The notes under the pieces were generated by a model. The model was not told the DNA's origin, did no database searches, and saw nothing but the letters and a program-made list of their open reading frames with translations. A stretch of 64,000 nucleotides of DNA, filler included, from Collodictyon triciliatum (taxonomy: Eukaryota), in NCBI GenBank assembly GCA_043381765.1. It is 5 parts of 5 records of this genome, joined end to end, with 100 filler letters (N's around TTAATTAATTAA, not from the genome) between each part and the next. Parts side by side here need not be neighbours in the genome. Positions count along the whole stretch, not along the records: positions 38,615 to 51,372 come from JBHJMP010002105.1; 4 more parts are not named here. The stretch is one strand, 5' to 3'. Positions 38,800 through 41,114 of this stretch are shown piece after piece. The position numbers and the translations under genes were made by a program. Position 1 is the stretch's first letter. Each line of letters opens with the position of its first letter.

Positions 38800-40781
38800 T
38801 CTAAAGGAAAAAGTAAAACAGAGACTTTCAGATAAAGAAAAGAAATCGTCTTGAGTTTGAGAATCTAAAGTTTGTAAAACCAGACTATCGAAATGTGAAA
38901 ACATCTCTAAAGTCGATTGTAAAGAATGCGGCTAACTATTACAAAACCAACGATACGGTTTTGTTATGTCATAATTTGGTTACCGATACTTATCTGTTTG
39001 CAAGATGTTACATATTGAAATCACAACAACTCCCAACAATCAGTGAAATGTTTTTTTTTTGTACGGTTTAAAGACAGTCGGAGTAGTTTCACAAGATAGA
39101 CCCTCAAGATTAAGAAAAAAAAAAAACAACCAAAAATGAGTAAAGACATGATGACTTTTTATCTCAATGATTTTCGATTCCTTTTGTCCCGAGGAGAACG
39201 CTCTCCGTTGGTTGGACTGTCTCGTGTATCATTGTGCTTGGCGAAGCAAATGCTGACAGCTTATCGTTATAACATTAAGGAACATTTTGTAAAGAGGCTA
39301 TTGCGCTTTATAAATGAAACAGTTCCTAAATATGAGAATATTACGGAAGCTGTTAAAAAGGCAGAGTTACGAAAAATAAGAAAAGCCATATTCAAGAAAC
39401 TCGAAATACCGGAACAATATAAAGAATTGATTAAACGCATTTGCATCATACCATTCCCAGCGATATTGTAAATAGTATCGAATATGATGTCAAAGTCAAT
39501 CCAAATAAGTTCATTCCATGTGTGATTTACATGAATCGTATTTTTGAGGACATTGGAACCAAACTGTTTCAATCAATCTCTATAAGAACTAACAATATAC
39601 CATGTTATATTACTCAAGATACGGTATGTTTGATAGAGCTATGTATTAAGCGGAAAAACATAATAAATGAAGAATAAATCAGTATGCAAAGAGACCATAT
39701 GGGATGCGTTCTTTGAAATGAAGAGGGTCTTTCATCAAATAGACTACAATTTTAAATACACGATACAAACAGACGGCTTGGCGGTGTCATCGTTGTTTGG
39801 AAAGAAAGGTATTTCGATTTCAAAATTGAACTATAATCCAGAAAAAACCAAGAATATGTTTATATAGATGAACTTTCCGAAGAGCAGTTATCTTTATTAG
39901 CGACAAAAAAAAAAAAATAGTTGGAGTGGACACAGGCAAGTTTAATTTGGTTTACATGGTGGATGAGACAGGTAAGAAATTACATTACACGGCACACCAA
40001 ACAAGACATAATAGCAAATCTCTTGAAAATCACAAAATACTCTTGCGAAAAAAAAAAAAAGAAAAGTACAAGGATTTTGGGTGTATACATGCCAACAGAT
40101 TTACAAAATGCTGTTTCTTTTGGTCTCAGGACTTTTGAAGAGAATCGACAGTTTGAGACGTCAAGAATATATTCAATCGATTTAGAGACAGAACTGTGTA
40201 AACATAATTCATACTGGTCGATTATGAATAATTTCGGGAATATGTATCTATGAGATCAAGACTCCAGATAAAACTATCCAGACTTTATGAACAAGTAACT
40301 TTTCGAAAGATGAGATGAGACAGTATGTTAATACAAAAAGAAGTGAACAGTTGTTTATGGACCGAATCGAAAAGACATTTGGCAAGGATGTTGTAGTGGC
40401 CTATGGAGACTGAAGAAGAAAATCTCCGATGAAACATTTTATTGCAACAATCAGAAGAGGATTATGAAAAACACTATCCAAACGTTTTGAACCAGTTAGT
40501 GTAGATGAATTTAGAACCTTCAAGGTGTGCTGTAACTTCGAAAAAGAACTGGAATATATGAAACTGAAAGGAAATGCAAAAAAGTGTTTAGATGTCTCAT
40601 ATGTAAAGAATGTAATCGCTCAGAAAGCAAACAAAGTGTATTCTGGACAAGGGACTTTAAAAGCGCTAAAAATATACCCAAGAAAGTTCTTTCAATTCTT
40701 CAAAAAATACATGCACCTCTCTTTAAAAAAACAGGCTGTCGGGTCTCTACTGGAGCCTTCACCACTACACAATCTTTGTGA
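38800..40781 (+). pseudogene. Decayed Fanzor (Fanzor1-like, TnpB-related RNA-guided endonuclease)
   Basis: Across frameshifts: VKTSLKSIV, YNIKEHFVKRL, YTIQTDG, RuvC-I IVGVDTG (D 39929), VAYGD(W>*), RuvC-II VDEFRT.K.CC (E 40507), CKEC zinc finger, RuvC-III WTRDFKSAKNI (D 40653). Intronless, with in-frame TGA at 40411 and 40465. Confidence 0.85.
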
Positions 40782-40820
40782 AAAAAGTGGCGAGACCTTG
40801 GATACTAGCGCTCCAGGTTT
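40741..40820 (+). ncRNA. Putative Fanzor omegaRNA scaffold (pseudoknotted)
   Basis: Nested stems GGTCTC 40742-47/GAGACC 40792-97, CCACT 40762-66/AGTGG 40786-90 and CACAA 40768-72/TTGTG 40776-80, plus a crossing stem CTGGAGC 40750-56/GCTCCAG 40810-16. Located at the 3' end of the Fanzor ORF. Confidence 0.55.
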
Positions 40821-41114
40821 CACCAATCGAAAAATTTTATAACCCCTTCTTGTCGAAATAAAAAAGATGAATCAGATGATTCTGATGCCTTAATAAAACA
40901 AAGTTATCACCACACTATTTTCTATAGTTTTTACAGTATATACTATTTTTCGCCAGCCGCTCTATAATTCCGTAACGTTTACACTAATCACTTTAGCGTT
41001 GTAAAAAAAACCAAACAAAAACCAAACAAAAACCAAACAAAAACCAAACAAAAACCAAACAAAAACCAAACAAAAAACCAAAGAAAACCAAAAATAAAAA
41101 AAAACTGCGGGCTT

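Follow-up and report, generated by a model that had tools for sequence, protein, structure and literature searches.

The stretch of DNA analysed here (the window) comprises 64,000 nucleotides (nt), filler included, of the Collodictyon triciliatum assembly GCA_043381765.1. Its part from record JBHJMP010002105.1 carries a Fanzor1-type pseudogene (38835–40861, + strand), and over the 3' end of this pseudogene lies a short segment with four perfect helices, which a preliminary description of the sequence had taken for a pseudoknotted omegaRNA scaffold followed by a guide. Comparison with an abundant family of giant-virus-type Fanzor1 genes suggests that the segment probably represents, in decayed form, the 5' module of the omegaRNA/right-end region of such an element, formerly resident in this eukaryote-like genome.

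The window consists of separate contigs, each ~12.76 kb long and apparently ordered by length, joined by linkers of the form N44-TTAATTAATTAA-N44 (12778–12877, 25646–25745, 38515–38614 and 51373–51472, unstranded), which recur every ~12.86 kb. Since the contigs are separate, neighbourhood across the linker points carries no meaning. The Fanzor-bearing contig starts at 38615, ~220 nt ahead of the gene, so the left end of the element is cut off.

The Fanzor1-Type Pseudogene

The pseudogene was delimited by tblastn with related proteins. Residues 3–624 of P0034, a protein of 634 amino acids (aa), align to 38835–40778 (+), P0014 and P0023 align along the same stretch, and the tail continues in frame 2 to a TAA at 40859–61. 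The RuvC-I piece matched 23 proteins, mostly of ~620 aa, in a word-index protein search, and tblastn aligns these along the whole stretch as well. An 80-aa piece (39435–39677) searched against 1.84 billion protein representatives gave 169 proteins at E ≤ 0.001, including the full-length P0034; no close intact relative was found among these representatives. The three closest protein matches are fragments: P0026 (76–86% identity over 137 aa), P0024 (57%) and P0025 (53%).

A profile of the ~620-aa relatives matches the solved Fanzor1 proteins GtFz1, SpuFz1 and PpFz1 (from Guillardia, Spizellomyces and Parasitella) with E-values of 2.6e-36 to 2e-30; the gene is therefore assigned to Fanzor1, not to Fanzor2 or TnpB. 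Pfam run on pieces of the window returned only OrfB_IS605, with an E-value of 0.0033 that falls below the cut-off. Still readable in the translated pieces are GVDTG, VDEFRT and TRDFKSAKNI, which we take to be the D, E and D motifs of RuvC.

The open reading frame (ORF) is not intact: it contains at least six frame changes, two in-frame TGA codons (40411–13 and 40465–67) and no in-frame ATG. Several of the frame changes sit in A or T homopolymers of 10–13 nt, where the assembly may be at fault; this does not hold for the shift near 39440–60 or for the two TGA codons. All of the in-frame stops in the C-terminal third (40411–13, 40465–67 and 40779–81) are TGA, the first of them standing opposite a conserved W. 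For these codons, decay of TGG to TGA is likelier than a genetic code in which TGA is read as W.

Stems at the 3' End of the Pseudogene

The four helices of the preliminary description are all present when the sequence is read directly at 40500–41100 (+). The outer stem (40742–40797) pairs GGTCTC (40742–47) with GAGACC (40792–97). Within it lies a hairpin (40762–40790) formed by CCACT (40762–66) with AGTGG (40786–90) and by CACAA (40768–72) with TTGTG (40776–80). The crossing helix pairs CTGGAGC (40750–56) with GCTCCAG (40810–40816), the latter arm starting 2 nt past a TAG at 40806–08. The segment is also GC-richer, as had been stated (49% G+C vs ~34% for its kilobase), and tblastn places the stems across the end of the Fanzor-type ORF on the same strand, in agreement with the position claimed for them.

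A perfect Watson–Crick helix of at least 7 base pairs (bp) occurs in 245 of 2000 dinucleotide shuffles (12%), and of 4627 native 81-nt windows 716 contain one; at least four perfect helices of 5 bp or more occur likewise in 245 of 2000 shuffles (12%) and in 1212 of the native windows (26%). A pseudoknot-tolerant heuristic of our own, in which one helix is taken out, the remainder is folded and the stacking energy is added with no penalty for the pseudoknot loop, gave −31.4 kcal/mol vs −24.1 ± 2.9 for shuffles (z −2.5). This score was reached by 7 of 400 shuffles and also by 2.5% of the 400 native windows of matched GC content that were drawn from a set of 737. Equally strong pairing in composition-matched shuffles had been named as a refutation of the structure; against shuffles, the window helices exceed chance only weakly.

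The 3' Element of Giant-Virus-Type Relatives

Relatives were collected by pattern searches. Among the 600 matches listed from metagenome contigs at least 486 encode Fanzor1 relatives, as do 288 of the 382 matches in IMG/VR; 80 relatives from metagenome contigs and 80 from IMG/VR (79 distinct IMG/VR loci) were kept for analysis. They are abundant Fanzor1 genes of 620–634 aa, and many of the contig names bear a giant-virus label. For P0026 and P0024, which are closer to the window copy, no locus was found in IMG/VR.

Across 122 distinct 3' ends, conservation is nearly total over the last ~60 nt of the ORF and ~95 nt beyond it, and then collapses just past GGTGTAA. The relatives share a covarying, RNA-like element that crosses the end of the ORF, extends 45–100 nt downstream and stops at the right terminal inverted repeat (TIR). 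Its first module, over the ORF end, consists of an outer stem P1 (core GTCT/AGAC), a closing C–G pair and a 7-bp hairpin P2; most family members have an additional 4-bp hairpin right after the stop codon. In 66 sequences, 97.3% of the cells of module 1 are paired vs 85.2% in column shuffles, 10 of 16 pairs are changed on both sides, and none of 500 shuffles reaches the covariation score. When the partners were slid by 1–3 columns as a control, pairing fell to 35–56%.

The second module is a long stem P3 around a small hairpin P4. Its pairing in 72 sequences amounts to 93.3% vs 83.5%, with 0 of 500 shuffles reaching the score and slid controls at 44–63%, in a model-fitted alignment that leans toward the model. 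In the locus L014, module 2 serves as the right-hand arm of a terminal inverted repeat that is 64 nt long and 75% complementary. A closer subfamily (L160–L163), found with P0034, follows the same plan with other stem sequences, for instance GACC/GGTC in P1, and its ORF reaches further into the scaffold. The 181 nt of L161, an intact relative, fold with z −5.06, and none of 200 shuffles is as good. A search of Rfam 15 gave one chance match (E 0.97), and nothing reached the gathering score in L161, L003 or the window.

In intact relatives, a transcript of the last ~20 codons and the next 45–100 nt would thus fold with P1 enclosing P2, followed by P3 enclosing P4, the second part doubling as the right TIR. 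The guide would be read from the flank immediately past this repeat.

Two stand-alone extra right-end modules were noticed among these loci with R1, the covariance model of module 2, which scores 43.7 bits at L014:3249–3350 and 42.8 bits at L096:8736–8795 (−). The copy in L014 is a miniature element of ~100 nt with both inverted-repeat arms. These copies suggest that derivatives of the Fanzor1 transposon resembling miniature inverted-repeat transposable elements (MITE) exist in giant-virus-labelled contigs. L014 also carries a 96-aa lysine/glutamate-rich ORF without a Pfam match (3651–3941, +), flanked by the left inverted repeat on one side and the Fanzor1 gene on the other; conservation of its 3' end in many loci of the family suggests that it belongs to the element.

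Proposed Correspondence between the Window Stems and the Family Plan

In a hand alignment guided by the reading frames, the GGTCTC/GAGACC stem of the window would correspond to P1, and the two inner stems to P2 and its closing pairs. The 5' arm of P1 appears to be shifted upstream by an in-frame insertion of ~12 nt, which has no counterpart in either giant-virus subfamily; the 5' arm of the crossing helix would lie within this insertion (~40748–40758). TTCACC is retained in the window, followed by a hairpin, an A-rich linker and, last, AGACC, as in the family, and 32 of 41 aligned columns of this module are identical to the best family member, vs 49–53% codon-aligned nucleotide identity over the ORF. 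Past AGACC the best-matching frame is frame 2 (..KKVARPW..), open to the TAA at 40859–61, much as in the L160 subfamily.

The nested stems at 40742–40797 would then be what is left of P1 and P2, and of the second module the window would hold at best a faint remnant (40922–41005). Because its nuclease gene no longer works, the locus is in all likelihood inert. The preliminary description was probably right in kind, that is, in seeing a guide-RNA scaffold region that overlaps the ORF at the Fanzor 3' end: the relatives carry a covarying scaffold across the ORF terminus at the same place, and the nested stems can be matched by hand to P1 and P2. It was probably wrong about the pseudoknot and about the position of the guide.

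The Crossing Helix

As noted, the 5' arm of the crossing helix would fall in the insertion, which is missing from the relatives. The relatives themselves offer a single candidate crossing helix, TTTCAC with GTGAAA, just past the stop codon. It shows 0 compensatory changes in 66 relatives, with pairing of 92.4% vs 92.6% in shuffles; it is simply broken in divergent relatives, and its 3' arm is wholly absent from one subfamily. Among characterised RNAs, the omegaRNA of SpuFz1, a Fanzor1, is presented without the TnpB pseudoknot in the available text of Saito et al. (2023, PMC10432273). In TnpB and Fanzor2 the pseudoknot consists of guide-flanking bases paired with a stem-loop apex, according to the accessible part of Yoon et al. 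(bioRxiv 10.1101/2023.08.09.552727); the crossing helix of the window has a different geometry and no covarying counterpart in the 66 relatives.

The pseudoknot is rated as unsupported because a 7-bp helix arises in 12% of shuffles. In all likelihood the two arms of the crossing helix pair by chance, or in this lineage alone, and are no trace of a conserved pseudoknot. It could be imagined that in a eukaryote-borne lineage of giant-virus-type Fanzor1 the 12-nt insertion made a true H-type pseudoknot with bases past the stop, and that this RNA module outlived the nuclease gene. Such a course of events is highly improbable; if true, the lineage-private H-type pseudoknot would be a feature that characterised Fanzor1 RNAs lack.

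The Candidate Right End and the Position of a Guide

The scaffold of the relatives continues through the second module to the inverted repeat. If the candidate right end described here is the true one, any guide would start near 41006; its placement within 40817–40870 is not supported. The only candidate in the window for a remnant of module 2 and the right TIR, a weak one, lies at 40922–41005 (+); it starts CTATAGTTTTTACA, ends GTTGTAAA and is matched by R1. The invariant 14-mer of the family is found with 2 mismatches at 40922–35, 114 nt beyond the TAG ending at 40808 and on the right strand. With up to 2 mismatches this 14-mer has 2 matches in the window vs 1.32 expected, and ~0.003 chance matches would be expected within 300 nt downstream on the right strand (our own arithmetic, made post hoc).

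The candidate right end is abutted by a (AAAAACCAAAC)n microsatellite (41006–41092, +), the flank that would supply the guide if 41005 were the true end. The end motif AAGGTGTAAA has no match with up to 1 mismatch near 41000. No convincing terminal repeat pair was found in the window, the best being 16 nt of low complexity (38734–49 with 41093–108).

Weighing of the Explanations

Several results weigh against a decayed omegaRNA module. R2, the covariance model of module 1, reports nothing at 40741–40816 among its 24 matches at E ≤ 10 in the whole window, and gives only 2.4–5.3 bits when run on 401 nt (40650–41050) alone. This silence at the stem site is weak evidence, because the narrow model also misses the intact closer relatives L160–L162 at E ≤ 1. 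The MAFFT placement of the window differs from the hand alignment. The P1/P2 pairs of the window and its relatives show conservation and not compensation, so shared coding ancestry (the ..FTT..KV.RP tail) could explain the likeness. At 40735–40825 the RNAfold minimum free energy is −24.3 kcal/mol vs −21.35 ± 3.25 for shuffles (z −0.91), and 42 of 200 shuffles equal it. Further downstream, the R1 match at 40922–41005 (+) is not significant (14.6 bits, E = 3), ranking fifth of nine over the whole window, behind four AT-rich chance matches. The segment 40918–41006 folds worse than its own shuffles (z +1.17) and 40735–41006 folds in an ordinary way (z −0.90), compared with −5.06 in the intact relative. 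The claim that the scaffold is better preserved than the ORF can thus be upheld for the first module only. Finally, neither the window nor IMG/VR yielded another copy of this lineage.

Searching IMG/VR with a pattern made from the window's own arms gave 4 matches, none adjoining a Fanzor homologue, where ~4 would be expected by chance (own arithmetic). The second-best match of R2 in the window (38838–38909, +, 18.2 bits, E 0.038; TCGTCTT, 29 nt, then AGACTATCG) lies in the N-terminal coding part. It is probably due to chance and was treated so because ORF starts in the loci of 41 relatives have no counterpart.

The same results can be read as chance pairing in decayed coding sequence, the stems never having served an RNA in this lineage and their likeness to P1 and P2 stemming from shared C-terminal coding sequence. 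The ordinary nested fold, the frequency of 7-bp helices and of four or more 5-bp helices in shuffles and native windows, the missing R2 match at the stem site and the 0 compensatory changes between window and relatives all speak for this. On the other side, the homologous bases are under strong structural constraint in the relatives, identity within the module (32/41 columns) exceeds the ORF average, and only 7 of 400 shuffles reach the pseudoknot-tolerant score; chance pairing is a possible explanation, though a rather unlikely one. A DNA-level role, in which the conserved structure would mainly be a set of subterminal and terminal repeats recognised by a transposase and the window would hold a remnant of a transposon end and not of an RNA, agrees with the finding that module 2 and the right TIR arm coincide and with the ~100-nt miniature derivative with both arms in L014. 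The P1/P2 module, however, lies outside the inverted repeat and inside the ORF and yet covaries as a hairpin, and published Fanzor1 reRNAs include the TIR as RNA, as far as described in the accessible part of bioRxiv 10.1101/2023.08.09.552727. A mainly DNA-level structure is thus very unlikely, and as a rival it is weakened further by the mutual compatibility of DNA and RNA roles.

An intact pseudoknotted omegaRNA scaffold of ~80 nt, with its guide at 40817–40870 and capable even now of loading Fanzor protein from another locus of the genome, would account for the four perfect helices and for the z of −2.5 in the pseudoknot-tolerant score. The location of the 5' arm within an in-frame insertion would even suggest that it arose while the ORF was still read. 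There is, however, no covarying crossing helix in the 66 relatives, and the published Fanzor1 RNA structure has none in the available text of PMC10432273. Moreover, the scaffold of the relatives requires a second module and extends as far as the TIR, and the region downstream of the window stems is unstructured. None of the 20-mers starting at 40817, 40843, 40862 and 40871 recurs within the window when up to 3 mismatches are allowed, and the protein representatives contain no close intact relative. A scaffold that is still functional is scarcely to be expected here. The decayed module of a formerly resident giant-virus-type element is consistent with the ORF-terminal position, the in-module identity and the covariation in the relatives, and is considered the probable origin of the segment.

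Other Features of the Window

Microsatellites rich in A/C or T/G, with related units, occur on several of the joined contigs (11824–12004, 26010–26219, 35201–35589, 38385–38514, 41006–41092 and 41495–41714). Inverted microsatellites flanking the Fanzor element were considered and dropped, the one at 38385–38514 being part of another contig and so unrelated DNA. No further copies of the Fanzor lineage were found in the window, in which only microsatellites repeat. A look-up of sequencing runs listed nine, each with a share of only 0.05–0.08 of the sampled words, and no RNA run containing the stretch was among those listed.

Host-like content is represented by an open frame of 866 aa that encodes RING and IBR domains (55590–58190, +), an AAA ATPase exon (47213–47683, +) and a zf-RVT (retroelement) piece (2140–2733, +). 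No larger endogenised virus region was seen in the window; its likeness to the loci of the relatives is confined to the Fanzor pieces, an AAA stretch and one weak RBR match.

Comparison with Known Systems

The locus adds little in itself, being a further dead copy of Fanzor whose guide-RNA region is worn. The presence of a pseudogene relative in a eukaryote-like genome fits the idea, already put forward in the literature, that giant viruses and hosts exchange Fanzor elements. Of more use is the compact covarying 3' RNA-like element of the abundant 620–634-aa Fanzor1 family, which has no match in Rfam 15 and offers a ready alignment for modelling Fanzor1 guide RNAs.

The nearest described system is the Fanzor1 of SfAV (606 aa). 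In the accessible part of Yoon et al. (bioRxiv 10.1101/2023.08.09.552727) it is, like the relatives studied here, a nuclease of ~600–630 aa found on large DNA viruses and their hosts, borne by a non-autonomous transposon with short terminal inverted repeats and no transposase. Its reRNA likewise comes from the 3' end and includes the TIR as its last part, and the guides vary between copies. The relatives differ in that they lie on giant-virus-labelled contigs, many with the 96-aa ORF, here a coiled-coil one, upstream; they are likened to SfAV by description and not by sequence. The window copy differs further in being a pseudogene.

SpuFz1, GtFz1 and PpFz1 belong to the same protein family as the relatives, as judged by the profile match. 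Their omegaRNAs, so far as the available texts of Saito et al. (PMC10432273) and Xu et al. (2024, PMC11423790) describe them, are built alike from stem-loops followed by a 3' guide and may overlap the end of the Fz ORF. In the same texts, the SpuFz1 RNA has no pseudoknot, and its region beyond SL1 varies freely; the RNAs are compared by description only.

In the ISDra2 and IS607 TnpB systems and in Fanzor2 (ApmFz2), the guide RNA also comes from the right end of the element, 3' of or overlapping the nuclease gene, according to the accessible parts of Jiang et al. (2023, PMC10530073) and Yoon et al. Their pseudoknot is described there as joining guide-adjacent bases to the apex of stem-loop 3, whereas the two arms of the crossing helix of the window lie in an ORF-internal insertion and shortly after the stop codon. 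Unlike these systems, the protein here is a Fanzor1, and no serine recombinase accompanies it. The kind of feature found at this locus is already known, and the window copy is a decayed member of it.

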